Notes: generated from the sequence alone by a model not told the origin. A stretch of DNA of 64,000 bases from Candidatus Muiribacteriota bacterium (GCA_030633305.1 DAOVTB010000001.1:7258-71257); one strand, 5' to 3'. Counted from the first letter of the stretch, positions 9,583 through 59,120 are shown. A program made the numbers and translations.

Positions 9583-10363
9583 TCAAAAGAGTTCTGAATA
9601 TCTTCTTCTTTTTCTTTGAATAAAACAAATGGTATTTCATCTTCATTATTCCGAAATTTGTCGACAGATCATCAATCACTACAATATATTTCGCTTTCAA
9701 TCCATATGAACAAAAATTTCCATTTGATGGAAGTTTTGCTATACTTATATCTTCTTTTTCCAACAATTTGATAAGTTTTTTCCTGTCACAGCTTGCAACG
9801 TCAGAGAAAAATGCAAGCTTCTTGTTTAAAAAGGAAAGAATAAACCCTCCTGATCTTTTTTTGGTATTCATGAACGGATAAACAAATCTTAATTTAAAAT
9901 GACTGCCAACTATCTCATTTACATCAAAATAGAATCTGAAAAAAATATTTTTTTCTTTAATTACATCAAGTAGTTCCCTGTTTTTTTTAAAATTTAAGTT
10001 ACTAAATGGCAGATAGATACTACTAATTGATTCCCTGCGAAGAAGTTTTATCAAAGAATTTACGTGTAATCTTGTATTTTTTGTTAATATGACCATTTTC
10101 TGGCCGGCTTTATCAAAGGGTCTATTATCAAAATATTCCCCATACTTATCATAATCCGGAGGATTAACATAAATACATTCATCTTTTAAAATAAATTTTG
10201 CAGAATCAAAATGTGAATATTTAAAAAATCCCAATTCTGCAATTTTATTTCTATCTTCAATAATAATCCTGTCATCAAAAGGATAGACTTTGAAATAGTA
10301 TACGAGACTACCCCATAAAATCAGATTTAGTAGAATGATAGTAATTAAAAATTTTTTTCTCAT
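9521..10363 (-). CDS. Hypothetical membrane-anchored protein
   Basis: 280 aa with an N-terminal TM (MRKKFLITIILLNLILWGSLVYYF). No recognisable domain. Confidence 0.4.
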   Translation of the reverse strand: MRKKFLITIILLNLILWGSLVYYFKVYPFDDRIIIEDRNKIAELGFFKYSHFDSAKFILKDECIYVNPPDYDKYGEYFDNRPFDKAGQKMVILTKNTRLHVNSLIKLLRRESISSIYLPFSNLNFKKNRELLDVIKEKNIFFRFYFDVNEIVGSHFKLRFVYPFMNTKKRSGGFILSFLNKKLAFFSDVASCDRKKLIKLLEKEDISIAKLPSNGNFCSYGLKAKYIVVIDDLSTNFGIMKMKYHLFYSKKKKKIFRTLLNGNIRIFADERKFLFYSEII

Positions 10364-10400
10364 CTTTGTGAATTATAACATATGTCAGTTGATCTTAAAA

Positions 10401-10436
10401 TAAAAAAAGACCGGATGGGAAACTCCAATCCGGCCT
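10401..10436 (-). terminator. Rho-independent terminator for the minus-strand gene ending at 10455
   Basis: On the minus strand: GGCCGGATTGGAGTTTCCCATCCGGTC followed by TTTTTTTA (stem CCGGAT/ATCCGG, GC-rich), 19 nt downstream of the stop. Confidence 0.6.
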
Positions 10437-10454
10437 GTTTATATTTAGATTATT

Positions 10455-11855
10455 CTATAATTTTACTATTTTTTTCATTCCTCTTTCGTCCTTGATGTAA
10501 ATCATGATTTCTGACGGATCAGCATCAGGAGGAATTACGGCTTCATAAAGGTCATTTCCACGATCTTCTAAAGAAACAAATCTTACTTGATTTTCAGAAC
10601 CAGTCCTCCAATATAGTTTTGCTTCCCGGATTTCACGATAAGAAGAAATCCTTGCACTAATCTTTGTTGGAGAATATTGAACGTTTTCAGTTCCGCCAAT
10701 AACATCAACTTTTATCTGAGGACCCATAACGAGTTTTGAAATACAGTGAATAGCACCGTTTGCAGTGATAATCCTGCTGCAATCGAAACCTACAACCTTA
10801 TATCCCGGCATATTATCGCGATATATTTTTAATGCAGTATCATCAAAACTTTTACCATAAATTGGGACTAAAACTGTTTTGTTCAAAATAAGTGAGTTTG
10901 TATAAGAAAATGATGTCCCTGTATATTTCGGCATTGGAATCCTAACAACTTTGTATGAATTACCATCTAAGTCTTTCATTCCTGCAAGAGTTTCTGCATT
11001 TTTATTCAGGATATCATAATTACCGGAAGCACCATCAGAAGGTGATGCATATTCACCAACTATAAAAACATTTCCTGGAAGAAGTTTACAGAACATGTCA
11101 ATATGACCAGTTCCATCACGATTCATCTTTGGTATAATAACCACTCGTTCTACATTATAAAAATTATTGAATATTTTTTCGATCTTTGCATGTGTCATTG
11201 ATGGATCTCCACCTTCGCTTGAATCGAAAACAACATCTGTCATAAAAGCAGTACCTTTACCATCTATTATCAGGTTTCCACCTGGAAGAATAAGGGAAGG
11301 TTTATAATAGTTAAATCCACAATGTTCTGCAACTTTCTGAGGAATTTTATCATCATTTGGTCGTGGCCTGTTGTATATCAGATCAAGAACACCTCTGTCA
11401 CCTTTGTCGTCTAATACAAACATTGGTCCAAAATCACGAATCCAGACAGAATTAGTCGGCGCAACAAGAAATGACAGATTCGCCATATCTACTCCAGCGC
11501 CCTTTAAAGTTCGTTCTGCACTACTTTTACTGTAGCTGCTACTGCAAATCAGAATAACTTTATTATCCAGACAGGATTCCTTGATAAGTTTAGTTAAAAG
11601 TGTTGAATATCCAGACCATGAATAAAGAACAGCATCTGCAGGTTCGAATTCAGCTGGTGCATAGAAACTCCCATCAGGAGTAATCCCGGCAGTAAAGCTA
11701 GACTCATCCAATTGTTTTTTTACATATTCTTTAACAACCAGGCGTTCACTATCGGTTAAGCCTGCTGGCAAAGACTCATTTTCTGAATACAAAAGAGTTG
11801 GATTTACCCATACAAACGCTAATAAAACTAATACTAAAATTGTTACTTTTATCAA
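10455..11855 (-). CDS. Agmatine deiminase / Porphyromonas-type peptidyl-arginine deiminase family protein with a signal peptide and a C-terminal extension
   Basis: 466 aa. It has an N-terminal signal peptide and the motifs IRDFGPMFV, HIDMFCKLL and the catalytic-Cys region ANGAIHCIS (compare AguA GGxIHCITQQ). There is an extra domain of about 90 aa at the C-terminus. Confidence 0.65.
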   Translation of the reverse strand: MIKVTILVLVLLAFVWVNPTLLYSENESLPAGLTDSERLVVKEYVKKQLDESSFTAGITPDGSFYAPAEFEPADAVLYSWSGYSTLLTKLIKESCLDNKVILICSSSYSKSSAERTLKGAGVDMANLSFLVAPTNSVWIRDFGPMFVLDDKGDRGVLDLIYNRPRPNDDKIPQKVAEHCGFNYYKPSLILPGGNLIIDGKGTAFMTDVVFDSSEGGDPSMTHAKIEKIFNNFYNVERVVIIPKMNRDGTGHIDMFCKLLPGNVFIVGEYASPSDGASGNYDILNKNAETLAGMKDLDGNSYKVVRIPMPKYTGTSFSYTNSLILNKTVLVPIYGKSFDDTALKIYRDNMPGYKVVGFDCSRIITANGAIHCISKLVMGPQIKVDVIGGTENVQYSPTKISARISSYREIREAKLYWRTGSENQVRFVSLEDRGNDLYEAVIPPDADPSEIMIYIKDERGMKKIVKL

Positions 11856-11966: not shown

Positions 11967-12989
11967 ATGCACTTATTAAAATTTTCTTTTCTTTTCTTAT
12001 TTTTTTTATTTATTTCCTGTCATGTGTATACTTCAGAAATTAACATCAAACAAGTTTTGATTCCTTCTATTAGAATCAAAAACACTCTAAAAAAAGGATT
12101 AAATTCAATTTTCTGTGATGGAAATGACCTTTGGCTCGGAACAAATCAGGGTATCGTTAAATTTGATGGCAAAAACTGGCTTCATTATTATGGTGATGAT
12201 CATTCTTTTATCGATGGAAAACCAGTTCAAAACAAGGGAAACTCGCCTTTTAAAGATAATCATGTCAATAATATTCTCAAATCCGAAAAGAAAATATTCT
12301 TTTTAACTGATTTCGGAATTATTGAATACAATTCCGAAAATTTTAAATTTGTTCATCATACAGGTTCACTCAAACACTCTCTTTATCTGAACGAGGCAAT
12401 CATGCTTGATCCTAATACAATCCTTCTGGGAACATGGGGAAAAGGTCTGGCTTTGTTTAAAACAGATACTTCTACATTTAAGCCTGCCGAACCGAATATT
12501 CCTGGAAAAGTGACTTATGTTACCGGTATCACTTCAAATTTGAAGACCATATGGATTTCCACTTTAACAAATGGAATATACAGTAGCAATTCCAATGAAG
12601 ATAGATTCTTTTCCTATACTACAAAAAACAGTAAACTGGAAAGTAATCGTTCAAAAGGAATTACTTCATTCAATAATGATATTTTTCTTATAACTTCAAA
12701 TGGCCTTTTACGTTTAACCCCAAAAGACTTTATCTGGTATTATTTCAAAAAACAAAACTCAAGTTTGACCAATGAAAATATTACTTGCTTATGCATTGGC
12801 GAAAATGGTCTCATGTATATTGGTACACTCAAAGGACTTTACTCTTATAGTAAATCTGGGCTACTCATAAAAGTAGCAAACAGAGAAATCGATAATACAT
12901 GGATCAGTAATTTGGCAGCCAGTAAAGATTCGCTTTGGATTACGACTAAACAGGGTGAACTTTATAAAATGGATTTATCTGGTAAATAA
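11967..12989 (+). CDS. Secreted beta-propeller-like protein (two-component-regulator-propeller-like repeats)
   Basis: 340 aa with a signal peptide. It has repeated LW(L/I)GT.xG(I/L) motifs (LWLGTNQGIVKFDG, LLGTWGKGLALF, IWISTLTNGIY, LWITTKQGELYKMD). Confidence 0.45.
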   Translation: MHLLKFSFLFLFFLFISCHVYTSEINIKQVLIPSIRIKNTLKKGLNSIFCDGNDLWLGTNQGIVKFDGKNWLHYYGDDHSFIDGKPVQNKGNSPFKDNHVNNILKSEKKIFFLTDFGIIEYNSENFKFVHHTGSLKHSLYLNEAIMLDPNTILLGTWGKGLALFKTDTSTFKPAEPNIPGKVTYVTGITSNLKTIWISTLTNGIYSSNSNEDRFFSYTTKNSKLESNRSKGITSFNNDIFLITSNGLLRLTPKDFIWYYFKKQNSSLTNENITCLCIGENGLMYIGTLKGLYSYSKSGLLIKVANREIDNTWISNLAASKDSLWITTKQGELYKMDLSGK

Positions 12990-15309: not shown

Positions 15310-15786
15310 ATGCAATCTGAAGAAAAAATTAAGAGAGTTTTAAACATACTGGAGTGTTACCTTCTAAACGAAAGTAAAAAACAAAATTTTTCTGAGGATT
15401 CTGTTCATAAATTCAAATGGGAATGTGGTGCAGCATGGATGGCAAATTTTGTTCTCGAAAACTTCAAAGATATGGACTTCGATAAAATCAAAGGGGACAA
15501 TATTGTGAAAACCAGAGCATTATGGGATTCTAATGATATTGAAAAAGTACTGGATTCTATCAGAAACAGTCATATCGACCTTACAGAAGGAAATCTCATT
15601 TCTAAAAAGGGAAACATGGATACAGATAATTCAAAGCAGAACTGCAAAGAATGTAATTATGCCAAAAAGAAAAGACCAGATGGAATTGCAATGTTAGCTG
15701 TCAACATCTGGTGCACACGAACAAGAAAGGAAATGCCTTGTTCACTAAGATGCACAGTAGGCAAATGGGGTTTCTTCGGATCATAA
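15310..15786 (+). CDS. Hypothetical protein with a Cys-rich C-terminus
   Basis: 158 aa. RBS GAGG is 7 nt upstream. The C-terminus is NCKECNYAKKK...CTRTRKEMPCSLRC (possible metal-binding). No known domain recognised. Confidence 0.45.
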   Translation: MQSEEKIKRVLNILECYLLNESKKQNFSEDSVHKFKWECGAAWMANFVLENFKDMDFDKIKGDNIVKTRALWDSNDIEKVLDSIRNSHIDLTEGNLISKKGNMDTDNSKQNCKECNYAKKKRPDGIAMLAVNIWCTRTRKEMPCSLRCTVGKWGFFGS

Positions 15787-15810: not shown

Positions 15811-18800
15811 TTAATCATTTAATTTTCTTAATTTAAGAAGCTGTCTGATTCTCTGTTTTACCTGTTTAAGTGTATCTTCATCCTTAACAAATTTTCTATA
15901 TTGCTTCCACCATCTGATTGCTTCTTCATATTTCTTGTCTTTTTCACATATCAAGGCTAGATTTCTATATGCTAAGGAATAGTCTTTCTTAAGTTTTGTT
16001 GCTTTAATGAAGTTTTCCTTGGCTTTTATAGTCAAATCTATTTTTACACATGCCATACCAAGCTCATAAAATATCATTGGATTTTCCTTCTCATATTTTA
16101 AGGCTTCCTTCAATAATAATCGCCTTTCATGATAATCCTTATCCAGAAGAGCATTATTATAATAGACCATGGCTAGTCTTTTCCTTGCAAACTGATTTTC
16201 AGGTTTCTTCTTAATAAACTCAGTCAAAGCTTCCTTTTCAAGTGCTGTCCATTTCTTTTTTTCATCAGCCTCTTCACAATTATCAGCCTTCATCTGATAT
16301 AATCTTGCAAATTGTTCAAGTAATGGAGGAAAGTCTCCAACAATGTCTCTGGCTTTTTCAAGCAGCAATTGTCTACGTCCAAGTTTTTTTGATGTTTTTG
16401 CACGTCCGATATATGCTTTTACTAATTCCTCATTAACTTCTTTATCACCAGGAAAAAGTTTCTGTACTTCTTTATAATAGTAAAGAGAATCTTCTATTTT
16501 ATTGCTATTTCCCGCTTTTTCTTTATATAAGATCTTCAATTCAATTGCTATATATTTATTATCAGAATCAAATTTAATATTTTTTTGAAAAAAAGAAATT
16601 TTTTCATCACTATTCTTCAATTTTGAACCAAGTTTCAATATCGCGGCGGTTACAGTCTTTGCAATTGAATTATTATATTTTTTATTTTTATAAATCTTTT
16701 CGGCTACAGTTAAGGTCCGTTCATAATTACCGTCAAGATTATAAACTGTTAATTCAGCCAGCTTCACTTTATGTGAAGAAGATGCAAATTCCACCAGATT
16801 TTTCAGTATTGCCTTAATTTTAGTATTAAAGTTCCTTACAGGTTTTTTATTTTTCTTAGCCTCTTCAGCTTCTTTCGCAAGTGAATTTATCATTTTAATT
16901 CCCAATTCACATAAGGCATCAATAACTTTTTCTGATTTGGGATTCCTTTTGGCAGCATTCTTCAGATTAATTAATTTTTCCCGGTCAGTATCCAAAGTTA
17001 GCATTTCTTCATAATATTTCTCTGCCAGAAGGTGATCGATATTAATCTCACCTGCAACAGCCGACTTGTTCTTTGAACGACCTCTTTTATTTCTACCGCC
17101 ACCGGAAAGTTTGCGTCTCCCTTTTGGCTTAGCAGTTTTTTCTTCTTTACCTGAAAGACCGACTTCTTTAAAAATATTCCTATAAATTCCATTATCAGAA
17201 TAAGGATAAGCTTTCAAAAGTAATTCAATCTGTTTATATGTATTTGGCTCTTTATTACTCATTTCAATATAAGTTCCACACATATATCTATTGATTCCAT
17301 CTAGTTTGGAATCTTTCTCTTTAGCAAGTTTAAATTTTTCAAGCGCACTTGCAAACTCACCTTTTTTATATAATTCTATTCCCTGATAAACAATTGACAT
17401 AGGATTAAATAAATAATTATAAATAAAATAACCTCCACTGCCAAGGACCAGTAAAAATATCAAACCAATAGCTGCATAAGCAATTTTAGTTTCACTTAAT
17501 TTAGTTTTCAAATTATCAATAAATTTTGTTTTTGGATTTGATTCTTGAACTTTTGTCTCAGCTTCAACTACCAAACCAGGTTCTAGTTCATCATCAACGA
17601 CATCATTACTTTCCTCAATCTTAACAGCAGATTGTTCAAACCCCATATCCCAGTCTTTAACAGAGATATTGTTCAACAATAATATTTCTTCAATCTGTTC
17701 AATCAAGTTATCCAGCTTTTCTAATTTCTTCAATTTTTCCAGTAGTGAGACCAGCTCATTATTATCATCTGAAATCTTGCCGGCTTTCACGTGCAATTCA
17801 GAATATTCAGTAATGTTTCGAATAATGATTATATCTTTTTCATATTCATCAACAACAACTTTGATTATATCTTCTTTTTCATTGATTGCCTCATTAAGCC
17901 GATCTGCATTAAAGCCATCAGCTTTAAACTTCTCAATAGCAGCTTCAACAGCTTCTTTAGCGTACTTACCTTTATATCCATGATCATTTAAAATTTCTTC
18001 AGCATTTTTAATATTCATTTCGTAATTGGAAAGATCATACAGTTCCTTTCTCAAACCCGATATTATTGAAGCATTTTCTTCATTCTGGACTTCTTCAAGA
18101 CTTTTCAGAGTATTTTCAATGTTAAAAACTTTTTTCTTATAATCTACATATATATCATTAAGATTAACAATATCACCGGCAAGTTTTCCCGAAAAAACAT
18201 CCATTATATAACCAGTTTGTTTCCACTTTTCCACGCATTCTATAATATTGTTTCTAAGATTATTAACTCTTTGAGTGGCATCCTCAATCATTTTGGCAAT
18301 TGATTCTACTTCATTGACATTTTTAAGAAGTGATTTAATCTTTGCTATCTTATCTTCAAAAATTCTGATTTCGCTATGTTCTATCAGCAGCCCAAATTTT
18401 TCGAGTTTCAAAATTCGCGATTTCAATAACTTGTACTCACTTTTTACACGAAAAAGCGGTAGTTCTAATTTTGAAAAATAAGAATCAACAAGAAATTCTT
18501 CATCTTTTTTCTGCTGAATAAAATCTTTAAATTCATCCTTGAGTCCCTCATCATCTTTATAAAGAGCTTCTACTTCTTCTTTTATCATCTTGGAAAAAAT
18601 TGGATTTTTGATTTTTTCAACTAGCGCACGAACTTCATCATCAACTACATCATTGTTTTCACAATAATCAAAAAAACCAGAGTACTTTTCACGCAGTTCT
18701 TCAATGGTATTCATACCATCTATATACTTATCAATATAATTCTGGTTATTATTTCTAAAAGCATCGTAGAATTCCGATTCATTATATCCAAGTGAAACCA

Positions 18801-20385
18801 GCAATACTATTTTTTCCTGAAAATCCCTTCCGGAATTAGACAATGCCGTTATCAAAGACACCTTGTTTTTTCTCAATGTCTTCTTGGTATCTCGAATTTT
18901 TTCTTCTTTATTATTTATTATTTCTCTTAGCTTAGAAATCTCAGCGGACTCTTCAGATGATACAGAATCAACTTTTTCTACTTCTGGATCAGAAGAATCA
19001 CTTTTTTCTTCAATCTCTGAAGTTTTGGATTCCACAACAGCATCTTCTTCCATTACGTCTGATTTCTCAATAAAATACGTTTCTTCAGGAATCTTGGTTC
19101 CAAATTCTTCCAGTTCTTGAATAAAATAAACTGGTTTCCCTTCGAACTCTTCACCATTTTCATATTTTTCAAGTAATTTCCGGGCACATACTCTGACCTT
19201 GGCATCATCATCAAGAGTCGCCATTTCAATAAAATCCCATATTTCCTGCTTATTTCTTACAGATATAGCAGTTAATGCAAAATTCCTTATTTTAGCATCT
19301 TTAATAGAATTAAATTCTTCAAAAAAGTTCTCAATGGATTTAGGTATTCTTAGAGTCCCATCTTCTGATTCAATAACTGGCTGAAGTGCAGTAGTTTCAA
19401 TATCTTCCAAAATATCCGAAAGAAGTTTCTTCTCTACTTCATCCTGCACTGAAGTAATGCCATTATGGAGAATATTAGTAATAAGGATTTTTCTTGAAGT
19501 TTTCTTTAACCATTCAAGAAATTTTTTCCGATTTTCATCTCCTGATTTTAAAATATATATTGATATTTTCAGCAGTAGTTCATCGGATTCTTCTTTTTCA
19601 AGGGAATCCCATAACAGAGCAAGTCCGCCTTTGATTATGAATTTAAAACAAAGCCAATATGCTGAAACTCTTTCATTTTCTTTTGAAGAATTTACCAATC
19701 GTTTTAAAAAACCATCAACTCGGGTATAATCAATATTTCCTATAATAAATGCAGCATTGGCCTTATCACGATTATCTTCATCTCCCAGAAGTTTCTCGAG
19801 CAAGGGAATATCTTCTTCAGTTATTCCAATACTACCCAAAGCTTCAAGAGAATTCGCACGGACACGAGATGCTGAGGAATTGATATAGGCCAGGAATATT
19901 TTTTTAGCATTACCCTTATTACATTTTTTATCGTTGGAAGCAAAAAATGAAATCACTCTTATGATTGTTGCCTGTATATACGGATCCTTACACTTTTGTA
20001 TATAAGCAACAAGATAAGGGAAAAAGTGATATAGTTTTCGAGAAATTATGATATTCAACGCAGCAACAATTTTTTCTCTGGTACCGGTTTCAAGTTCTTT
20101 TTTGATTAAAAGCGTTATCTTTTCCTGATCATTTCCTTTCGCAATTTCAGGAGTTACAATTTTATCTGCCTTTTTTTGGATCTTGTATTTTTTTTCAAGA
20201 AAATCATGTTTTTCTCGGGCCATTGAGCGTAATTCACTGGAAGAATCTTTTTCACTCACATCTTCTAAAAATGAGAAAAGATCTTTTTTTCCAGCATATT
20301 TATCAAAAATAATCAGCAATACTTTTTTTCTATCTGGTACTGGTAATTTATAGAAATCTTTTAGTAATCCAAGAAGCTCACTCAC
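15811..20385 (-). CDS. Giant multidomain protein: N-terminal HEAT/PBS-lyase-like repeats, acidic linker, long coiled-coil, single TM, C-terminal TPR region
   Basis: 1524 aa. The N-terminus resembles the HEAT proteins at 53602-56838 and 59617-62868. A TM helix IAYAAIGLIFLLVLGSGGYFIYNYLF lies at about residue 975. A basic stretch KPKGRRKLSGGGRNKRGRSKNK and TPR-like repeats follow. Confidence 0.6.
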   Translation of the reverse strand: MSELLGLLKDFYKLPVPDRKKVLLIIFDKYAGKKDLFSFLEDVSEKDSSSELRSMAREKHDFLEKKYKIQKKADKIVTPEIAKGNDQEKITLLIKKELETGTREKIVAALNIIISRKLYHFFPYLVAYIQKCKDPYIQATIIRVISFFASNDKKCNKGNAKKIFLAYINSSASRVRANSLEALGSIGITEEDIPLLEKLLGDEDNRDKANAAFIIGNIDYTRVDGFLKRLVNSSKENERVSAYWLCFKFIIKGGLALLWDSLEKEESDELLLKISIYILKSGDENRKKFLEWLKKTSRKILITNILHNGITSVQDEVEKKLLSDILEDIETTALQPVIESEDGTLRIPKSIENFFEEFNSIKDAKIRNFALTAISVRNKQEIWDFIEMATLDDDAKVRVCARKLLEKYENGEEFEGKPVYFIQELEEFGTKIPEETYFIEKSDVMEEDAVVESKTSEIEEKSDSSDPEVEKVDSVSSEESAEISKLREIINNKEEKIRDTKKTLRKNKVSLITALSNSGRDFQEKIVLLVSLGYNESEFYDAFRNNNQNYIDKYIDGMNTIEELREKYSGFFDYCENNDVVDDEVRALVEKIKNPIFSKMIKEEVEALYKDDEGLKDEFKDFIQQKKDEEFLVDSYFSKLELPLFRVKSEYKLLKSRILKLEKFGLLIEHSEIRIFEDKIAKIKSLLKNVNEVESIAKMIEDATQRVNNLRNNIIECVEKWKQTGYIMDVFSGKLAGDIVNLNDIYVDYKKKVFNIENTLKSLEEVQNEENASIISGLRKELYDLSNYEMNIKNAEEILNDHGYKGKYAKEAVEAAIEKFKADGFNADRLNEAINEKEDIIKVVVDEYEKDIIIIRNITEYSELHVKAGKISDDNNELVSLLEKLKKLEKLDNLIEQIEEILLLNNISVKDWDMGFEQSAVKIEESNDVVDDELEPGLVVEAETKVQESNPKTKFIDNLKTKLSETKIAYAAIGLIFLLVLGSGGYFIYNYLFNPMSIVYQGIELYKKGEFASALEKFKLAKEKDSKLDGINRYMCGTYIEMSNKEPNTYKQIELLLKAYPYSDNGIYRNIFKEVGLSGKEEKTAKPKGRRKLSGGGRNKRGRSKNKSAVAGEINIDHLLAEKYYEEMLTLDTDREKLINLKNAAKRNPKSEKVIDALCELGIKMINSLAKEAEEAKKNKKPVRNFNTKIKAILKNLVEFASSSHKVKLAELTVYNLDGNYERTLTVAEKIYKNKKYNNSIAKTVTAAILKLGSKLKNSDEKISFFQKNIKFDSDNKYIAIELKILYKEKAGNSNKIEDSLYYYKEVQKLFPGDKEVNEELVKAYIGRAKTSKKLGRRQLLLEKARDIVGDFPPLLEQFARLYQMKADNCEEADEKKKWTALEKEALTEFIKKKPENQFARKRLAMVYYNNALLDKDYHERRLLLKEALKYEKENPMIFYELGMACVKIDLTIKAKENFIKATKLKKDYSLAYRNLALICEKDKKYEEAIRWWKQYRKFVKDEDTLKQVKQRIRQLLKLRKLND

Positions 20386-20414: not shown

Positions 20415-22541
20415 TCAACCATGTTTTTCAAGAATTTCTTTAAATCTCTCGTTCTCTGGGTCTTTTTCAAGAACTTTTTTAATAGATTTAAATAAAGTCG
20501 GAGTAAATTTTTTAACTGAAATATAGCATTCACAAAGACCTTTTAACACATCGGCATTGTCAGGAAATAATTTTGTCAATTTCTCGAAAATCTTCATATT
20601 ATCACCTGAAAAATCACCTGTTTTTATATATGACATTCCTGATATCAACAATGCATTCTTATTGTCAGGATCTACGGTAAGAACCTCACCTGCATTTGAA
20701 ATTGCTTTATCATAAGCAGCCTTTTCATATAAAGTCTTGGCAAGCTTTAATTTTTTCTTCAAATCTCCAGTTAAAGCAACAGTCTTTGTTTTTTTAGATG
20801 AAACAAAATCATCAAGTTCATCATCTTTTCTTGTTCCAACAACTCTCTTCTTTGCCAACATATCTCCAATTACACCTTTTGCAATAAAACCAATAAAAAA
20901 TAATCCACATAAGCTCAATCCAACCCATGTATAAAACATTTTTTCAGAACTTGCTTTCTGAGCTTCTGCTTCTTTTTCAGCATTTTTAATCTTTGATACA
21001 ATCTGCTTTACAAAAGGTAATTTCGATGTTTTTAATTTTGCTATATACTTTTTATAATTTTCATCAGGTTTTTCACCAGACTCAAAATAGTAACAATGTG
21101 CAAGCATACTGTTAAGCTTCTCATCTTCTTCAGGAACAGTACCCAAATTACTTATAGCAAGTAATTTCGCCTTTTTAAAATCACCTAATCCAAAATGACA
21201 ATATGTAATATAAATCGGAATTTTTGATGTTTCAGACATTTCACTCAGTTCAGGTTTTCCTTGAACTGATTCGAGCTTCTTTATTGCCATTTTCCATTTT
21301 TTTGATTTATAAGCTTTAATTCCATCTTCAAAATCCTTTATTACACCTACTGTGCTACTTAATTTTGCCAGGATTTTTTTCTTTAGTTTTAATACACCTT
21401 TGTTATTTGGATAAACTTTTAAAACCTTTCCAATATATTCTTTTGCACGTTTAAATTGTTTGTTTCGATAACTAATTTTGGCCTGTTTTAAGTTTCTCTT
21501 CGCATTTTTCTTTCTTCTTACTGCTGGATCAATTACAGCGTCTTCTCCGTGTTTCGCGATTGTAGCTATTTCATCGAGTTTCTTCTCAGCAGTTTCCCGT
21601 AGTTTAACAGCCTCTGCTAATTGATAAAATTGATTTGCATCCCCAACTTTGAGAATCGTTTCCTGATACTTTCCAGCATCAAATAACTTAACTGCCTCAG
21701 CATATATTTTTTTGGCTTTGAGAATATTCTCAATTTTGGAAAGAAAAGTATTTACTTCCCCTGAAACTGAATACTTTTTGGCTTTCAGGAAAAAGGTCTT
21801 TGCATTTTTATAATCTTTTGCCTCAAAAGCCTTTTTACCTTTAGTCAGATTAGAATAATACGGGTTTTTAGAACTAAATATCAAGGCAAGGATCTTTTTA
21901 ACTTTCGAATTGCCTTTGTTTCTGCCATGCCATCTTTTAATCTCGATCATAGCAGTTTCATATTTTTTCTGTTTGAATAAAATCAATGCTTTCTGGCAGA
22001 CCAAACCAACATATCTATCGTCAGATGAGCTAAGGGTTCTTTGACTAGCAAGCTGTTCGACATTTTTCAGAACCTTTAGTGCATCACTATATTTTTCTTT
22101 TTCTAAATACAATTCAACTTTAAAGGTGTAACCCTCAATAAATTTGTTATTATCTTCAATTATAGAATCTGCTATAGATATTGCTTTTTCAAAATTATTC
22201 TGTTTTCCAGCTTCTTTTGCTTTCTGTAACTTTATTAAAGAAAGTAAATTTGCATACTTTTCTTCATGCCTTTTCAATCCAAAGGCTTTTTTAGCATATT
22301 TTCTGGCTTGATCTATCTTTCCCTGCTCAAGATATATTTTTCCCATCCAATAGTATGGATCAGAATAAATTGAATCAATCTCGGAAGCTGATTTCAAAAG
22401 TTCAAGAGCACGTGTGAAATTACGGCTTTTGAATTTAATCACCGCTTCCTTGACTTTTTCAACAGCTTTGGTAGCAGCTCCAAATGAAACAGAAACCATC
22501 AGAAAAAAAAGAATCAAAATAAAAATTGACGTTCGCTTCAT
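20415..22541 (-). CDS. TPR-repeat protein with a signal peptide and one internal TM
   Basis: 708 aa. Signal peptide MKRTSIFILILFFLMVSVSFGAA. It has multiple TPR-like units and a hydrophobic segment WVGLSLCGLFFIGFIAKGVIG. Confidence 0.6.
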   Translation of the reverse strand: MKRTSIFILILFFLMVSVSFGAATKAVEKVKEAVIKFKSRNFTRALELLKSASEIDSIYSDPYYWMGKIYLEQGKIDQARKYAKKAFGLKRHEEKYANLLSLIKLQKAKEAGKQNNFEKAISIADSIIEDNNKFIEGYTFKVELYLEKEKYSDALKVLKNVEQLASQRTLSSSDDRYVGLVCQKALILFKQKKYETAMIEIKRWHGRNKGNSKVKKILALIFSSKNPYYSNLTKGKKAFEAKDYKNAKTFFLKAKKYSVSGEVNTFLSKIENILKAKKIYAEAVKLFDAGKYQETILKVGDANQFYQLAEAVKLRETAEKKLDEIATIAKHGEDAVIDPAVRRKKNAKRNLKQAKISYRNKQFKRAKEYIGKVLKVYPNNKGVLKLKKKILAKLSSTVGVIKDFEDGIKAYKSKKWKMAIKKLESVQGKPELSEMSETSKIPIYITYCHFGLGDFKKAKLLAISNLGTVPEEDEKLNSMLAHCYYFESGEKPDENYKKYIAKLKTSKLPFVKQIVSKIKNAEKEAEAQKASSEKMFYTWVGLSLCGLFFIGFIAKGVIGDMLAKKRVVGTRKDDELDDFVSSKKTKTVALTGDLKKKLKLAKTLYEKAAYDKAISNAGEVLTVDPDNKNALLISGMSYIKTGDFSGDNMKIFEKLTKLFPDNADVLKGLCECYISVKKFTPTLFKSIKKVLEKDPENERFKEILEKHG

Positions 22542-22551
22542 AATTCCTCCG

Positions 22552-22953
22552 CTAGTCAGCTAAAACAATTTCTATTCGTGAATCTTCACGGATTTTTTTA
22601 TCTGTTCTGGAAAGTTTAAAAAGAACATCAGGATTATCAAGAGCTTTATTAGAATAAACCAATGCAATTCCATTATCCGTTTCTACAATCTCAGTTGGGA
22701 CTTTAAGAGGTATCTGTCTTTCATCAGTTCCATGAAGATAAAAAACTTTTCCAAGACCTTCCTCAAATCCAACAGCAATGCTTTCTATAGTGAAAGGATC
22801 TGTAGTAAGTTTTCCCGCTTTTACAACAACCTTTTCACCGATAAATTCAAATAATTCCTTGAATTCGTCCCTTAATTGACCTTCAGAAGTCTGGAGATCC
22901 AGTTCTTTAGATGTAAAATAATTCGTAATTTTATGTTTTGGTGGCTTACCCAT
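22552..22953 (-). CDS. Hypothetical protein
   Basis: 133 aa, tightly packed in the minus-strand gene array. No recognisable motif. Confidence 0.4.
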   Translation of the reverse strand: MGKPPKHKITNYFTSKELDLQTSEGQLRDEFKELFEFIGEKVVVKAGKLTTDPFTIESIAVGFEEGLGKVFYLHGTDERQIPLKVPTEIVETDNGIALVYSNKALDNPDVLFKLSRTDKKIREDSRIEIVLAD

Positions 22954-22975
22954 CAGCAGACCTGCCTTTTTTAAT

Positions 22976-23881
22976 TTATTTATTTAAATACTTTAACAAA
23001 CTCTTGCTCTTGTACTTCACTTCATATTTCTTTCTCTTAAACTTCATAGCTTCAGCAATTAGAAAAATCTTTTTCCCTTTAATTATTATCTCGGTTGTTG
23101 TGAGGCCAAACATAAATTTTTCAAAAAATAGCATAGGATTAACCATATTTGAAATCGTATCAATAATAAATCCTGGAACCGAATTTTTCCCTGTTTTGCA
23201 TTTTTTTATCTTGAAACGCATCATATTCTTTTTATCAACATAAGTTGTCCCATTAACAAATACTTCCCCTTCATAGTCCATAAACTTCATCATGCCATTT
23301 AAAACGATATCTTTACCATCAACAGAAAGTGGTGGAATTATAGTCCCCTGCTTTCCAGCTTCGTCATGGATAAATTTCCCAAGTTCATCAGCAGTTACTT
23401 CCATCGTGAAAATAGCAGAATTTGCAGTCATGATTCGAAATTCCTTCTTATTTAACCGTTCCTGATCCAGGACAACTCCAGTAAAATTAATACTTACCCG
23501 ATCAATCGGCATACCTTTTACTAAAAAATTTGAAAATACAAATTCCATATTTTTATAAACATCCCGATCTATTCGATATTTCTTCTCTTTTTTCTTGAAC
23601 GTCACATTCCGGACTTCAGGAACAATAAAATATTCTTCCGCCATTAAATCACGGAGATTTTCAAGATACTTTATTTTTGATTCAGGAAACAGTATCAGAG
23701 GCATCTTTTTTATATGCTTGTTCAAATAATTCTGAAAAGCAACCCTTATAACTTCAGCTTCTTCTAGTAATAACTGATCTGCACTGACAGTTTCCTGACA
23801 ATAAGAAATATCGTTAAAGCTTACTACAAACAGGGTAACAAGTAAAATCACATATATAACTTTCAATTGATGCCTCCGCAT
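22976..23881 (-). CDS. Hypothetical secreted protein
   Basis: 301 aa with signal peptide MRRHQLKVIYVILLVTLFVVSF. No recognisable domain. Confidence 0.45.
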   Translation of the reverse strand: MRRHQLKVIYVILLVTLFVVSFNDISYCQETVSADQLLLEEAEVIRVAFQNYLNKHIKKMPLILFPESKIKYLENLRDLMAEEYFIVPEVRNVTFKKKEKKYRIDRDVYKNMEFVFSNFLVKGMPIDRVSINFTGVVLDQERLNKKEFRIMTANSAIFTMEVTADELGKFIHDEAGKQGTIIPPLSVDGKDIVLNGMMKFMDYEGEVFVNGTTYVDKKNMMRFKIKKCKTGKNSVPGFIIDTISNMVNPMLFFEKFMFGLTTTEIIIKGKKIFLIAEAMKFKRKKYEVKYKSKSLLKYLNK

Positions 23882-23918
23882 TAATTGTTATTGTCATATA
23901 TATTATCAGAAAAAAGGG

Positions 23919-24542
23919 TTAATGTAAAATATTCCATCCTCTTTCGAGGTTTTTTAAATGAATAGGTCTTAGACATACTCCTGTCATTAAAGTTGTTTTA
24001 ATAGCACGTTTCTTCATTGATAGCTTTATTCTAATAAAACTTATCAGACTTCGATCAACACTGGAGCTACTTTCGTAATCATAACTTTTAAATTTCTCAG
24101 TTTTAGCATTTTCAACATAGCCTGAAAAAACTTTAGGATCAATTTTAAATCCTTTCAAAACAGTTTCATTCTGTCCACCTTCAGAACGAACGAATATTCT
24201 GTTGTTATCCGAAAGAACATAACTTACTTTTATAAATTCATTTATTGAATTCAAATTGAACTGCTTACGATATTTTTTGAAAACAATTTTTCTTGGACTT
24301 AATTTTTCTATACTGACAGCGCAGGAAAGATCTCTTATACATCTTTCGATAAAAGTCCTGCCTTCTCTGACAAGTTCAGCTTCTTCCGCAGTTACTGTTG
24401 CTCCTTTGGTGACATTATAATAAAAATTATAAATGATTCCAAAAACCAGTATGGAAATACTCAGCACCATCAATAATTCAACAAACGTAAATGCTCTTTT
24501 AACTACATTCCGTCGTCTGTTCTTAATATGACATAGCGACAT
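23919..24542 (-). CDS. Prepilin-type N-terminal cleavage/methylation domain protein (pseudopilin)
   Basis: 207 aa. Class III signal KRAFTFVELLMVLSISILVFGIIYNFY (variant of the G-FTLIE motif with Ala at -1). Confidence 0.6.
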   Translation of the reverse strand: MSLCHIKNRRRNVVKRAFTFVELLMVLSISILVFGIIYNFYYNVTKGATVTAEEAELVREGRTFIERCIRDLSCAVSIEKLSPRKIVFKKYRKQFNLNSINEFIKVSYVLSDNNRIFVRSEGGQNETVLKGFKIDPKVFSGYVENAKTEKFKSYDYESSSSVDRSLISFIRIKLSMKKRAIKTTLMTGVCLRPIHLKNLERGWNILH

Positions 24543-25066
24543 AAACTTTGACTATTCCCCTTATCAAATAATTCAACAATTATGTTCTTAATCTTAATCA
24601 TGGGATTCTCAGGATATTCCTCAACTTCAACCGTAACGACTCTTCTGTAACCAGAATACTCATCAGGATACAATTCATAATCCCTTCCATAATATTTTTT
24701 ATATTTTCTTACAAATTTTTCGAAAATCCTCGGAAACTTTTTCTTCAATTTCTTAGTAAAAATATCAGTGAAATTCCGTTTAAATAATTCTGAATTTTCA
24801 TCCATATCAATGAACGCTTCGTGATGTGTTCCACGAAATACAGAAGAAAACACCTCAAAATCTGATTTAATCCTGGTAAATCTAAGTAAAGTTAGCTCTT
24901 CAATTTTTTCACGAGCCAGGTTATCAACAATTGTTTTATTCTTGATATTGATAACTCCTTTTTTACCAAACCATATGATTCTGGTAAACGGAGTAATTAA
25001 AATACCAAGAATAACCAGGGTAATCAATATTTCTATCAATGTAAAAGATCTTCTAGATGTCTCCAT
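24503..25066 (-). CDS. Prepilin-type N-terminal cleavage/methylation domain protein (pseudopilin). Start moved to the internal Met
   Basis: The ORF track starts at 25108, but METSRRSFTLIEILITLVILGILI begins at 25066, giving a short basic leader + FTLIE motif. Confidence 0.55.
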   Translation of the reverse strand: METSRRSFTLIEILITLVILGILITPFTRIIWFGKKGVINIKNKTIVDNLAREKIEELTLLRFTRIKSDFEVFSSVFRGTHHEAFIDMDENSELFKRNFTDIFTKKLKKKFPRIFEKFVRKYKKYYGRDYELYPDEYSGYRRVVTVEVEEYPENPMIKIKNIIVELFDKGNSQSLCRYVILRTDDGM

Positions 25067-25860
25067 AATATCCCCAGATTTTTTTCTCCCATAATATATA
25101 CGACACAAACACTGAAAAAGATGTAAGGTCCAAACGGTATATAGGTACTTTTTTTATTCAATGTTATTATCATCAGCAGAATACCAAAAAATGCTCCCAG
25201 AAAAAATGAAAGGAATAAACCTGCTATAAGAATTTTATATCCCACAAAAAAGCCAAGACCAATAGCTAGTTTAACATCCCCTCCGCCCATTGCAGGACGT
25301 TTGAATATTTTTTCTCCAAGAAATCCGATAGCCCAAAGAAATCCACCTCCTGCAAATGATGCAAAAAGTCCGTCAAGAATGTAACTATCAAAAAAGGGCA
25401 CATAGCTTTCATTCACCTTGAGAAATGTTCCGGCAAAAGAAAAAGCTGCTCCAGTTAGAAAAAGCGACAGGTTCATTCCATCAGGTATTATTTGAAATTT
25501 TATATCCAAGGCAGATATCACAACAAAAAAACTTAGCATTACTATACATTTTGCTACAAAAAAAGGATTGCCCCCATAAAGATGATAAGCAAGCATGAAA
25601 ATAAATCCCTCAAGAATCTCAACAAATGGATATATAAACGATACTCTCCCTGCACAATAATGACATCTTCCCCCATTGCCAATCCAACTTAAAACCGGTA
25701 TCAGATCAAAGAATCCAAGTATTTTACCGCAACGGGTACAATGAGAAGACGGAAATATAAAAGATTCATATCTCGGTATTCGATATATAAGCACATTTAT
25801 GAAACTTCCTACAAAAGTCCCAAAAATAAAGAAAACAAAATATGGAAAAATCAGTTCCAT
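25036..25860 (-). CDS. pilD: Prepilin peptidase (A24 family)
   Basis: 274 aa. It has an N-terminal zinc-binding CxxC...CxxC (CTRCGK...CHYCAG), 6-8 TM helices and the conserved GGGDVKL motif. Confidence 0.8.
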   Translation of the reverse strand: MELIFPYFVFFIFGTFVGSFINVLIYRIPRYESFIFPSSHCTRCGKILGFFDLIPVLSWIGNGGRCHYCAGRVSFIYPFVEILEGFIFMLAYHLYGGNPFFVAKCIVMLSFFVVISALDIKFQIIPDGMNLSLFLTGAAFSFAGTFLKVNESYVPFFDSYILDGLFASFAGGGFLWAIGFLGEKIFKRPAMGGGDVKLAIGLGFFVGYKILIAGLFLSFFLGAFFGILLMIITLNKKSTYIPFGPYIFFSVCVVYIMGEKNLGILWRHLEDLLH

Positions 25861-25865
25861 AATTA

Positions 25866-26663
25866 CTAAATCCTTCTGTTATTTAATTCCTTAACGGTTG
25901 ATAAAGTACGAGCGATACGAGTATTCGTTGGCGGATGAGTTGAAACAAATTTCAAAAGTCCGCGTGAAATTGCAGACGAACTCCCTTCCTTCTGCTTCAA
26001 CTTTCTTAAAAATTTACTCATACCTCCTGGGTCATATCCGGCTGAGTGCGCATACTCCATACCTGTATAGTCTGCTTCATATTCATCTGTTCTACTTAGT
26101 TTAAGCATAGTCAAACTTGAAACAAGAGTCATCCATTTATATTTTGAAGAACTTGAATTACCTAAAATGGCCTGCATTGAACCAAGAAAAAACATGTTCT
26201 TAAGCAGTGCCTTCTCTGAATCCCGATTCCTTACATGTGCACATTCATGCCCAAGGACACAGGCAAGTTCGTCATCTGATTCCACCATATCTAAAAGTCC
26301 CTTTGTCACATAGATCTGTCCGTTAGGAAACGCAAAAGCATTTACCATACTAGTGTTTAATATTCCAAACCTGTAATCATAGTTTTTCCTACTCTGGCGA
26401 GCGATTCGATGTCCAATAGTCCTCACTCTTGTATTTGCTGAACTATCCATATACAGTCCATATTTAGAGCTCATACTGTCACCAGCTTTTGCAGATAAAA
26501 CTCCCCAGAAATTACTAGTACTGACACCGGATGTCCGGGTATTTGATTTCTGACCAGCTGTTTTCCATTTTTTCTTCAAGGATTTTTTAAATTTTTTCCA
26601 CCAACCAGCATGCAAAGTTGTAGCAAAAATCAATAATATAAAAACTATGGTTATTTTTTTCAT
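25866..26663 (-). CDS. M48-family zinc metallopeptidase with a signal peptide
   Basis: 265 aa with a HExxH motif (GHECAHVRNRDSE) and an N-terminal signal peptide. Confidence 0.65.
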   Translation of the reverse strand: MKKITIVFILLIFATTLHAGWWKKFKKSLKKKWKTAGQKSNTRTSGVSTSNFWGVLSAKAGDSMSSKYGLYMDSSANTRVRTIGHRIARQSRKNYDYRFGILNTSMVNAFAFPNGQIYVTKGLLDMVESDDELACVLGHECAHVRNRDSEKALLKNMFFLGSMQAILGNSSSSKYKWMTLVSSLTMLKLSRTDEYEADYTGMEYAHSAGYDPGGMSKFLRKLKQKEGSSSAISRGLLKFVSTHPPTNTRIARTLSTVKELNNRRI

Positions 26664-26728
26664 AATAATTCCTGAAAAAGTGCATTTTTTATATAATATA
26701 AATTACTCGCGACAATTAGTCAAATGCG

Positions 26729-27006
26729 AATATCAAATCCACATACGCACTGTACCCAGCGTCTCTAGATGGCCTCATTTCTAATACAAGGCCTGGACAC
26801 CGCAACGCATATCAATTTTGGAGAAAAAGCAAACCTAGTACATGAAGCATTCTCGAACTTGAATATAATATGCGACATCATGACGGGTCAGGGCACTGTG
26901 AATTTTTTTGAACTTCAAAGAAAATTAAAGTACTTCTGACCCAATCTATATTAGTATTTGATATAATTATTTGGAACTTTTTTTATTTCACTTCGTGTTC
27001 TTCGTG
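26729..27006 (+). repeat. Intergenic structured repeat, copy C (module 1 + module 2 + AATCTATATTAGTATTT + TTCGTG x2)
   Basis: Module 1 (26729-26815) shares CCTGGACACCGCAACGCATAT exactly with copy D. Module 2 has helix GGGTCAG (26885-26891) / CTGACCC (26936-26942). TTCGTG at 26992 and 27001 extend into the last codons of the lipoate-ligase gene. Confidence 0.5.
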
Positions 27007-27699
27007 GTAATAATGAATTTTTCCACCAAAGGATTCTGCAAATCCTTCGGTCAGTTTAGAAATAATCATACTTTCATTGTAATAAACAGGATCGAGAAGA
27101 TCATATAACGCAACTCTTTGATCGCGTGCAGATGGATCAGTTCCAAAAAGTTTACTTTCTGTCGTTTCATCAATTGTCAAAGGGATTGAGCCGTGCTGCA
27201 GAATATTTTTATTCCGTCGGCACTGGGCACTTCCAATAAGTTTTTTTCCACCAACAACAATTTCGGCAATACTAATTGACGAGAAACAACTGACTTTGGA
27301 ACTATACTTCCTTCCCGATTTTCTTCTATATATTTCTGCTTCAATTCCCATTTTTTCCATACCAGATAAAAGTCCCTCTGCAATCAGATTATAAAAATCA
27401 ATAAGTGAGTATTTTTTTTCAAAAATATCTTCACTACAACTGACCGCATAAGTTATATCATTACTGTGAAATACAGCTCGACCACCAGTTGGTCGTTTAA
27501 CAACATCAAGATCAGCAGGCCAATTAACGGGATGATGATTTTTTTGAAGATAACCAACAGTAACAGCCGGAGGATCAAATTTGTAAAATCTCAAATGGAT
27601 TCCAGTTCCACCAAATTCCATCATCTTCTGGTCATAGTTCATCTGAAAAGACGCATTTTTTTTATAATAGGGATGTAAAAACAGATCAAAAAAAGACAT
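26983..27699 (-). CDS. Lipoate-protein ligase / octanoyltransferase family protein (BPL_LplA_LipB domain)
   Basis: 238 aa with VKRPTGGRAVFHSNDITYAV, typical of the LplA/LipB catalytic domain. The C-terminal tail YYHEEHEVK is encoded by the TTCGTG-repeat segment. Confidence 0.6.
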   Translation of the reverse strand: MSFFDLFLHPYYKKNASFQMNYDQKMMEFGGTGIHLRFYKFDPPAVTVGYLQKNHHPVNWPADLDVVKRPTGGRAVFHSNDITYAVSCSEDIFEKKYSLIDFYNLIAEGLLSGMEKMGIEAEIYRRKSGRKYSSKVSCFSSISIAEIVVGGKKLIGSAQCRRNKNILQHGSIPLTIDETTESKLFGTDPSARDQRVALYDLLDPVYYNESMIISKLTEGFAESFGGKIHYYHEEHEVK

Positions 27700-32207: not shown

Positions 32208-33566
32208 CGTGTAAATATGTATCCCAAATCATGTTTATATACCTTAGAAGAAGTTTGAAAGACTTTGCATATGTAGACATACAAACCTCTAAACCATATT
32301 TACGAATTTTATGTATCGGTCGTGATGTACCCGTCCAGTAGAAGTCAAGATACGTCAACAAAATCTGAATATAAAACTGTGACGGTGTCATGTGATCAGG
32401 TCTTACAACCTGATGTGAAAAGTCCCATTTTACGTAATCCTTTTCATCAACAAAAATTCTGTCCTTCATCGTCTCATATTGTGGTGTTTTCCTAAAGGGA
32501 ATATAAGGCTGAATATTAACAAAATCAAATCGAGCTTTTTTTAGGAATCGTTTTAAATCAGAAAAATCCGTACGAGTCATATCAGGTTTTACAATTATGC
32601 TTGCAAAAAAATCGAGGTCATATTTTTTAAGAATTTCAGAAGCTTTAATTGCATCATCCGGAGTAAACGATTTTCCATATTCTTTCAAATCCTTTATTCG
32701 ATGTGATTCAACCCCTATTAAGAATCCCGTAAATCCAATTTCACTTAATTTTCTGATTATATCCTCATTTTCAAGAATAAAATCTATTCGAGCATAGGAA
32801 AGAAACCTCTTTTTAATCCCTGACTCCTTGATTTTTGTAATAAATTCTTCCAGTCGTGCCGGATTCATCAGAAAATTATCGTCAATAATGAAAATATTGG
32901 ATTCCTGAATTTCAGAAATTTCTTCAATGATTTCATCAATAGGAAGCAGAATAAGATGCCCACCACTTATTTGCCATCGAATACAGAACGAACATTTATA
33001 CGGACACCCATAAGAAGTCCTTAACAAGGCTGCTGGTTTTAAAAGAAAATAACTATAATGTTTTCGCCACCTCTGCGTACTTTCCCTTGTTGCCTTTAAT
33101 TTAAAGCATCCGTCTTTTTTTCAGGGAGATTAAAATCATACTTTCTGACTTCATCAATTTTCCCTTCACCAATAAGACTTATGACCTTATTAAAACTTAC
33201 CAGAGCAAATCTCTTAACCACAATGTCAATAAAAGGAGTTTCAAAATCCTCTGGACACCACTCCGCATGAATACCACCAACTAAAATATGAGTTTTGGGC
33301 GATATTCGCTTAATTTTTTCTGCCAGACCTTTTATAATATCAACATGGATTACATATCCGGAAAAGCAGACGATATCCACTTTTTTCAAATCTTCAATTA
33401 TCTTTTCAACAGGTGTTTTAACAATCTGGAAATCCACAATTATTACATTATGGTCTTTTTCCAGGACTGAATACAAGTATTCCAATTCAAAAGGTTCAGT
33501 AATATAGACATCTGAAAGTGAAACACATTTTTTTGGAGTAGCCGGTCTTATCAGAACAATATTCAT
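32200..33566 (-). pseudogene. B12-binding radical SAM gene disrupted by a frameshift (ORFs 33096-33566 and 32200-33120 overlap)
   Basis: The upstream ORF (B12-binding domain, 156 aa) stops at 33096. The radical-SAM frame (…WRKHYSYFLLKPAALLRTSYGCPYKCSFC…) is open from 33120. The two frames overlap by 25 nt, next to a 7-T homopolymer (33115-33121). This could be a genuine frameshift or a sequencing error. Confidence 0.5.
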
Positions 33567-52708: not shown

Positions 52709-52712
52709 ATTC

Positions 52713-53591: not shown

Positions 53592-53601
53592 AATCGAATA
53601 T

Positions 53602-59118: not shown

Positions 59119-59120
59119 AA

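Follow-up and report, generated by a model that had tools for sequence, protein, structure and literature searches.

The 64,000-nucleotide stretch analyzed here (the window), from Candidatus Muiribacteriota bacterium (GCA_030633305.1, DAOVTB010000001.1:7258-71257), contains on its minus strand a gene for a 1524-amino-acid (aa) protein, called below the giant protein, in which an N-terminal HEAT array, a helical region with copies of a ~97-aa repeat, one transmembrane (TM) helix and a C-terminal TPR region follow one another. The gene had been proposed in an earlier reading of the DNA (the sequence-only reading), and the open reading frame (ORF) was confirmed as a single frame of 1524 codons. 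It starts with GTG, 11 nt downstream of a ribosome-binding site (RBS; GAGGAG), and this start is backed by alignment, with residues 1-2 matching the N-termini of three homologs (P0002, P0032 and P0060, described below). An identical protein (P0001) is encoded on the ENA scaffold_65 (ZHAN22-2_SAMN18200489_METAG-scaffold_65, 68,099 bp) and on a Logan contig, and a further copy, cut by the contig end, is present in NCBI GCA_023144555.1, from the same organism as the window. The source sample (SAMN18200489 / SRR13892590) is 'RS_1' from the Site-F cold seep, South China Sea (PMC9357000). The GC content of the window is ~32%, and nothing functional was found in the literature on Muiribacteriota and neighboring lineages. 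The order of parts proposed earlier, with HEAT repeats at the start, an acidic linker, one TM helix and a TPR end, was borne out by Pfam, hydropathy, AlphaFold2 (AF2) models and Foldseek, and the features are as follows.

15811-20385, minus strand: giant gene, one 1524-codon frame; predicted bitopic product with HEAT, 97-aa-repeat rod, TM and TPR parts
19126-20385, minus strand: predicted cytoplasmic HEAT/ARM-like solenoid, residues 1-420 (Pfam HEAT_2, PDB sequence matches, homologs)
18931-19125, minus strand: acidic Ser/Glu-rich linker, residues 421-485 (34% Asp plus Glu, net charge -16)
17671-18930, minus strand: helical region with ~97-aa repeat copies, residues 486-905 (clear at 683-765, partial at 807-857, weak at 603-664)
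18091-18339, minus strand: best-kept repeat copy, residues 683-765, with the motif E-K-W-K-Q-T-G-Y (31.4 bits, positions 1-86 of the independent repeat model described below)
17485-17670, minus strand: second acidic linker, residues 906-967, with a Lys-rich membrane-proximal end (from the sequence)
17410-17484, minus strand: single TM helix, residues 968-992 (Kyte-Doolittle window maximum 1.95; helix in the AF2 model, model residues 2-26)
15814-17409, minus strand: predicted extracytoplasmic TPR superhelix, residues 993-1524 (Pfam TPR_2/11/17/19, AF2, Foldseek; net charge +40)
17044-17208, minus strand: disordered basic Gly/Arg/Lys insert within the TPR region, residues 1060-1114 (55 aa; predicted local distance difference test score, pLDDT, <50; model residues 93-147)

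The region between the HEAT array and the membrane had been read as about 450 aa of coiled coil, a description that has to be replaced by that of a repeat domain. An exhaustive HMMER search with residues 1-1200 of the giant protein against 1.84 billion cluster representatives (E<=1e-3) yielded 171 matches, nearly all of them via the HEAT region; three representatives (P0008, P0106 and P0115) matched the middle region and not the HEAT array. Iterative hidden Markov model (HMM) searches revealed eight tandem copies of a ~97-aa repeat in each of these three proteins, four in each of P0032 and P0060, and copies at residues 587-664, 683-765 and 809-859 of the giant protein, together with weaker remnants. 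An independent repeat HMM, built solely from the repeats of P0008, P0106 and P0115, also detected the four copies in P0032 and P0060 and scored 31.4 bits (E 8e-9) against the whole giant protein, with copies at 683-765 (full model length, 31.4 bits), 807-857 (15.5 bits) and 603-664 (7.6 bits), while 200 shuffled versions of the region scored at most 4.6 bits. In all, the giant protein has only about 3-5 copies. AF2 modeled residues 486-905 as all helical (pLDDT 82.4 from a 10-row alignment), the longest helix having 38 residues; a two-stranded coiled coil for residues ~486-930, which would call for hundreds of residues of uninterrupted helix, was rejected. The repeat consensus has a W-K-x-E-G-Y-x-V-x-x-L-E turn joining two long helices, and EKW[GK]Q[TSA]GY is invariant in the alignment of the giant protein with P0032 and P0060.

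Searches of the known families with this repeat were negative: no repeat unit reached the threshold of any Pfam family, the PDB sequence search with repeat units gave only coiled-coil-type noise, and Foldseek of the rod model (residues 486-905) against the PDB gave nothing at E<=1e-3. The repeat is thus a new element, lacking a Pfam family and a solved sequence relative, which occurs both in membrane scaffolds of the present kind and in fusions with a DnaA-type ATPase. In P0008 and P0115 the repeats run on into such an ATPase (PF00308, E ~1e-70), and zinc ribbons are also present. As eight tandem copies are fused to the ATPase in these two proteins, the repeat appears to be a portable module, consistent with a generic spacer role. 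P0008, P0115 and P0106 (850-1350 aa; L047:1760-5806) have a common N-terminal domain of ~110 aa before the eight repeats, and in P0008 the zinc ribbons are double and a poly-Lys tail is present; the contig GC is 46%, and apart from the ATPase and the zinc ribbons their architecture has no Pfam match.

Tandem helical-bundle rods are known from the staphylococcal proteins Ebh and Embp, cell-surface adhesins built from FIVAR-GA repeats with a period of 126 aa. The Embp chain that was matched is 126 residues long, whereas the period in the giant protein is 97 aa and the copies only about 3-5; moreover, the repeats of the giant protein are predicted to be cytoplasmic and membrane-tethered, in contrast to the surface location of Ebh and Embp.

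The only full-length relatives of the giant protein are P0032 (1608 aa) and P0060 (1629 aa, NCBI GCA_002838975.1), which are 47% identical to each other and 21-24% identical to the giant protein. BLASTP aligned residues 18-760 of the giant protein with 17-758 of P0032 (E 9e-20, HEAT and repeats) and residues 924-1478 with 915-1421 (E 1e-4, TM and TPR). The three proteins thus form one family, with HEAT, 97-aa repeats, TM and TPR collinear and the motif EKW.Q.GY in common, and as they are collinear over all parts, the domain combination has been inherited as a unit. The family is very rare, with three full-length members among the 1.84 billion cluster representatives. Two metagenome scans with family-specific peptide patterns detected no relative of the giant protein, and a word-index search with the giant protein and with the three-member profile returned, apart from the protein itself, a single generic HEAT protein, the candidate list being probably swamped by Lys/Glu-rich words. 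What is genuinely new at this locus is the 97-aa repeat, together with the very few proteins in which it is joined with HEAT and TPR.

The HEAT array itself belongs to a widespread class. Residues 123-211 matched Pfam HEAT_2 (PF13646) with 39.6 bits against a cut-off of 27.7 (E 6e-10), and the best PDB sequence matches of the HEAT region were AlphaRep/HEAT structures. In the HMMER search, 139 representatives matched residues 1-520, 47 of them collinearly from the N-terminus and 41 with a single TM segment after the match. These 41 proteins show that the anchoring of a cytoplasmic HEAT domain through one TM helix recurs; it is the combination of this arrangement with the 97-aa repeat and TPR that is very rare. 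A 323-aa protein from a contig of 1.75 kb, P0002, shares 33% identity with residues 1-300. A scan of GTDB genomes gave HEAT-level matches only (20-52% identity over short segments), best in Candidatus Muiribacteriota metagenome-assembled genomes (MAGs; GC 30-33%), followed by Wallbacteria and Riflebacteria/Ozemobacter, so that a placement of the organism in Muiribacteriota or a nearby lineage is tentative. The three best Muiribacteriota matches were rejected as orthologs, being HEAT proteins of ~350 aa with no predicted TM helix and another gene context. The PBS-lyase-type HEAT family includes CpcE and NblB, and the synthetic AlphaRep scaffolds were derived from it. The giant protein resembles this family in that residues ~110-250 score above the gathering threshold and AlphaReps are its top PDB matches, but here the array heads a 1524-aa membrane protein with no lyase context. 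The NblB model was not among the NCBIfam matches of the giant protein, and a 1078-aa HEAT-TM protein of the window matched it far below the cut-off (45 against 300 bits). In several MAGs (L019-L025 and L028; Wallbacteria, UBP16 and others; ~10001-11800), a short HEAT match is directly followed by a homolog (22-29% identical) of a 340-aa window protein with faint PorZ/Reg_prop beta-propeller matches; the window gene (11967-12989, plus strand) is located 2.8 kb past the end of the giant gene and in the opposite orientation.

The hydrophobic segment at residues 968-992 agrees with the TM helix expected at about residue 975, and TM helices are found at equivalent positions in P0032 (~949) and P0060 (~1032). 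Five Lys residues lie in the 18 residues before the segment and none in the 15 after it, and there is no N-terminal signal peptide, which together argue for an N-in/C-out topology, with residues 1-967 predicted to be cytoplasmic and the TPR domain periplasmic. The AF2 model of residues 967-1524 consists of the TM helix and 25 short helices (13-17 residues) arranged in pairs, roughly 12 hairpins. Pfam TPR_2 scored 29.8 bits against a cut-off of 27, and Foldseek of the model against the PDB gave 344 matches at E<=1e-3, the best of those listed being TPR proteins (SPINDLY/OGT, APC subunits and consensus TPRs, probability 1.0). An extracytoplasmic TPR end, as proposed earlier, is thus supported for the fold by Pfam and AF2/Foldseek and for the side of the membrane by the flanking charges. 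The basic insert (1060-1114) coincides with a gap in the alignment and is largely missing from P0032 and P0060. The superhelix fold recalls PilF/PilW, Tgl, MamA, LapB and BamD, and the last ~110 residues weakly match MamA, Tgl and HemY (MamA-like NCBIfam match at 1386-1495, E 1e-8, far below the cut-off). In contrast to those small lipoproteins and soluble proteins, the TPR region here, with scores far below the curated cut-offs, would be the ectodomain of a 1524-aa bitopic protein.

According to the sequence-only reading, the giant protein fuses two parts that are separate polypeptides in a duplicated module of the window (51.6-63.9 kb), so that the HEAT-TM and secreted TPR proteins of that module would act together. 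Domain fusion (the Rosetta stone) as a means of inferring functional linkage reportedly goes back to Marcotte and Enright in 1999. For such an inference each half has to be homologous to one of the separate proteins, and where promiscuous repeats are involved it is not reliable. The HEAT-TM paralogs of the module are:

53602-56838, minus strand: HEAT-TM paralog of 1078 aa
59551-62868, plus strand: HEAT-TM paralog of 1105 aa

These paralogs are 50% identical to each other, and the corresponding TPR proteins (369 and 362 aa) 60%. The fusion idea has in its favor that both the giant protein and the paralogs have a HEAT array, predicted to be cytoplasmic, followed by one TM helix, that both match the same broad set of HEAT representatives, and that hhalign joined the N-terminus of the giant family with the paralogs (probability 93.7%, E 2e-7). 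However, the hhalign match comprised only 132 columns (giant 110-249, paralog 295-427), non-collinear and confined to the generic PF13646 core of both. BLASTP of the giant protein with the 1078-aa and 1105-aa paralogs was not significant (E 0.16 and 0.20), nor was phmmer with its HEAT region against 49 window ORFs (whole-sequence E 0.4-0.7 for the paralogs), and all-against-all BLASTP in the window gave no link between the giant protein and the HEAT-TM paralogs or the TPR proteins. The HEAT domain is closer to many proteins outside the window (E 1e-17 down to 3e-30) than to these paralogs, which moreover lack the 97-aa repeat by the independent HMM. The other half fared no better: hhalign of the C-terminus gave a probability of 0.7% (E 0.078) with the 369/362-aa TPR proteins, which were not matched by BLASTP or phmmer either, and 0.2% with the C-terminal tails of the paralogs. 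With a 708-aa TPR protein encoded directly upstream of the giant gene (TPR708, see below) the probability was 12%.

The likeness to the paralogs therefore holds for the generic repeat class and not for any specific relationship. As repeat classes, HEAT and TPR are so promiscuous that common membership in a class says nothing about linkage; as in a true Rosetta-stone case, two domain classes found in separate neighboring proteins occur in one chain, but neither half is homologous to its supposed counterpart. Moreover, in each copy of the module the HEAT-TM gene is convergent with its TPR gene. The module (51599-63950) is an inverted duplication: in copy 1, TPR369 and a 305-aa TPR lipoprotein (both plus strand) converge on HEAT-TM 1078 (minus), and in copy 2, HEAT-TM 1105 (plus) converges on TPR362 (minus), with 3' ends overlapping by 7 nt. 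As the HEAT-TM and TPR genes are on opposite strands in both copies, they cannot be co-transcribed. We conclude from these comparisons of sequences and profiles that the giant protein is not a fusion of the neighboring HEAT-TM and TPR genes, and a composite origin from the module is very improbable; tempting as the HEAT/TPR argument is, it fails on the very condition that the sequence-only reading had named for its refutation, a lack of significant alignment with the HEAT paralogs, and the duplicated module gains no support from the giant protein.

Upstream of the giant gene, and in the order of transcription, lie the following genes, where a slash marks the boundary after position -1 of the prepilin-type motifs and L048 is a Logan contig (SRR22388293, GC 45%).

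25866-26663, minus strand: M48 peptidase, secreted, whose gene opens the tight cluster (Pfam)
25036-25860, minus strand: prepilin peptidase (A24_N_bact and Peptidase_A24, Pfam), 77% identical to the ortholog P0153
24503-25108, minus strand: prepilin-type protein 1, RRS/FTLIEIL... (Pfam N_methyl, E 1.5e-6; TIGR02532)
23919-24542, minus strand: prepilin-type protein 2, KRA/FTFVELL... (sequence motif, no Pfam match), 75% identical in L048
22976-23881, minus strand: 301-aa hypothetical protein with an N-terminal signal or anchor, 62% identical in L048
22552-22953, minus strand: 133-aa hypothetical protein, no TM helix and no Pfam match, 72% identical in L048
20415-22541, minus strand: TPR708; signal peptide plus a second TM segment at ~535-560; 62% identical ortholog in L048

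This order is the one proposed earlier, with every gene on the minus strand and gaps from -40 to +37 nt: M48/A24 +5, A24/pilin 1 -31, pilin 1/pilin 2 -40, pilin 2/301-aa +37, 301-aa/133-aa +22, 133-aa/TPR708 +10 and TPR708/giant +29 nt. The true start of prepilin-type protein 1 is likely Met15, giving a 187-aa product, which is what both ENA and NCBI call. The 319-nt gap upstream of the M48 gene holds a promoter-like site (26723-26695), and no terminator-like hairpin was detected at the minus-strand junctions from 26663 to 15811, with the caveat that in DNA so rich in AT, consensus scans for terminators and promoters alike are weak and uninformative, giving 87 promoter-like sites where 73 +/- 8 were expected. 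In L048 the order LipB-M48-A24-pilin-pilin-301-133-TPR is the same, and the proteins of the collinear block from M48 to TPR708 are 62-80% identical to those of the window (the partial LipB 54%), which supports an operon-like arrangement. The unbroken minus-strand run from 26663 to 15811 is real too, but it is not special, almost every gene from 39145 to 13214 being on that strand. We propose that the giant gene probably shares a transcript with TPR708, which may extend to the genes for the M48 peptidase, the prepilin peptidase and the pseudopilins. Between the eight-gene block of L048 and the corresponding part of the window (20415-27699) there is a large compositional shift (GC 45% against 32%) in otherwise related genomes.

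TPR708 is predicted to have ~510 periplasmic TPR residues, the TM segment at ~535-560 and ~150 cytoplasmic TPR residues, a topology that mirrors that of the giant protein. NCBI calls it as 708 aa and ENA as 694 aa, which would drop the signal peptide. On the other side of the giant gene, a Cys-rich ORF of 158 aa (15310-15786, plus strand), called likewise in the ENA and Logan copies, converges on it with 24 nt between the stop codons; it had no Pfam match, and no terminator-like hairpin was detected between the two stops.

Only gene position points to a pilus role for the giant protein, and the earlier hint at a pilus- or secretion-associated complex stands as far as adjacency in this organism is concerned and does not extend to the homologs. 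We consider it unlikely that the giant protein belongs, as a dedicated part, to a type IV pilus or type II secretion-like system, in which it would anchor or position the fiber of the two upstream pseudopilins as a functional analogue of FimV/HubP, PilF/PilW/Tgl or SgmX. Its gene is the last of a tight same-strand cluster with a prepilin peptidase and two prepilin-type proteins, the M48-to-TPR708 cluster is conserved in L048, and NCBIfam gave weak similarities of the giant protein to Tgl and of TPR708 to PilW and SgmX. These scores are nonetheless far below the cut-offs (Tgl 21.7 against 225; PilW 44.8 against 154; SgmX 15.6 against 1800), which places neither protein in the PilW/PilF, Tgl or SgmX equivalogs. 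Furthermore, no Pfam match to the pilus ATPase (PilB/GspE), the platform protein (PilC/GspF) or a secretin was detected among the scanned window ORFs of at least 150 aa and the precomputed Pfam annotation of the rest, so the cluster does not qualify within the window as a type IV pilus or type II secretion system locus, although such genes may lie elsewhere in the genome. FimV and HubP, polar scaffolds of type IV pilus and polarity systems, work as trans-envelope organizers; their LysM domain is periplasmic and their acidic/TPR part cytoplasmic. They lie beside pilus genes or act together with them, and the giant protein is like them in being large and apparently bitopic, with acidic low-complexity linkers and TPR-type repeats, and in having pilin genes as neighbors; its predicted orientation is, however, the opposite, there is no sequence relationship, and Pfam detected no LysM or FimV C-terminal domain in it.

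The loci of the full-length homologs bear directly on this question. Both P0032 and P0060 lack pilin or peptidase genes nearby and have other neighbors, and therefore the pilin context is not a property of the family. Each follows an opposite-strand gene for a tail-anchored protein (316-320 aa), of which no counterpart was found in the window, and downstream of each lies a gene for a cytoplasmic TPR-like protein of 737-790 aa. The latter were rejected as counterparts of TPR708, as they have no signal peptide or TM helix and are not similar to it. In a more distant contig (L053, JGI 3300033149, GC 31%), which has an A24 peptidase 43% identical to that of the window and a pilin, a 740-aa HEAT protein (L053:1121-3343) is encoded two genes upstream of the peptidase and the pilin. 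This second, independent HEAT-pilin adjacency could be counted for a pilus role, but the HEAT protein has no specific similarity to the giant protein (no tblastn match at E 1e-4), and the adjacency may be coincidence because the lineage is HEAT-rich.

A further alternative is a stand-alone tether of the envelope or cytoskeleton: the giant protein would then be one of the many expanded HEAT-TM and TPR proteins of the lineage, functionally unrelated to its upstream neighbors, with its gene placed by chance at the end of a long run of same-strand genes. We regard this as unlikely, though a little less so than a dedicated pilus role. Of such proteins the window encodes three of the HEAT-TM type and at least eight with TPRs, almost every gene between 13 and 39 kb lies on the same strand, the homologs follow opposite-strand genes with no pilin genes nearby, and a promoter-like site (20431-20403) precedes the giant gene. 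On the other hand, the 29-nt spacing with an RBS and no terminator-like site at the junction favors read-through from TPR708, and the predicted bitopic nature of TPR708, with its mirror topology, makes it a plausible partner.

The reading that we favor, though we would call it no better than an even bet, is that the giant protein is a lineage-specific bitopic inner-membrane (trans-envelope) scaffold that couples extracytoplasmic to cytoplasmic structure, with TPR708 as its most likely partner. In such a scaffold, the periplasmic TPR superhelix would bind an envelope partner, and the repeats, as three-helix bundles, would form a stiff spacer, perhaps about 20 nm in length if the value published for the Ebh repeats of staphylococci is a guide. 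The spacer would hold the HEAT head, on its flexible acidic tether, away from the membrane, and the head would bind a cytoplasmic partner, so that the envelope partner would be coupled to the cytoplasmic one. If true, such a rod-and-head arrangement would give bacteria a simple means of keeping partners in the cytoplasm at a defined distance from a structure in the envelope.

Several observations weigh against this scaffold. All repeat copies of the giant protein except 683-765 are degenerate by the independent HMM, the positive-inside signal is ambiguous in the sequence of P0032, and the C-terminal AF2 model has moderate confidence only (pLDDT 69, three-sequence alignment). The promoter-like match mentioned above, weak as it is, lies just upstream of the giant start, and the L048 contig ends 13 codons before the stop of the TPR gene, before the position of the giant gene. 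To these is added the different context of P0032 and P0060. The practical value of the giant protein is modest until a partner or a phenotype is known.

A more far-reaching version of the scaffold is that the giant protein, TPR708, the two pseudopilins (with Ser/Ala at -1), the 301-aa and 133-aa proteins and the two peptidases would together constitute a previously unknown trans-envelope apparatus of the lineage, tentatively Muiribacteriota, a proposal that we regard as improbable. In such an apparatus the stiff cytoplasmic rod could keep the HEAT array, as a docking head, a fixed distance below the membrane and so serve as a molecular ruler or tether for a pilus-like fiber, and the same repeat could serve as a spacer in the DnaA-type ATPase proteins of other organisms.

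The window holds three prepilin-type proteins, all on the minus strand, that lack Gly at -1 and keep Glu5: RRS/FTLIE (24503-25108), KRA/FTFVE (23919-24542) and PRA/FTMVE (43648-44196); the prepilin relative in L053 has the canonical G/FTLVE. The third of them has a weak ComGF-like match and lies directly downstream of the gene for an N-terminally anchored protein of 705 aa (44630-46747), which has no Pfam match. Finally, the minus-strand genes at 34337-38232 encode Rnf-Nqr membrane subunits, FMN_bind, NQR2_RnfD_RnfE and a Fer2/FAD/NAD reductase, and look like an NqrB-F-type operon; they adjoin a B12-binding/radical-SAM gene cluster (30876-33566, minus strand), confirming an ordinary chromosomal context.

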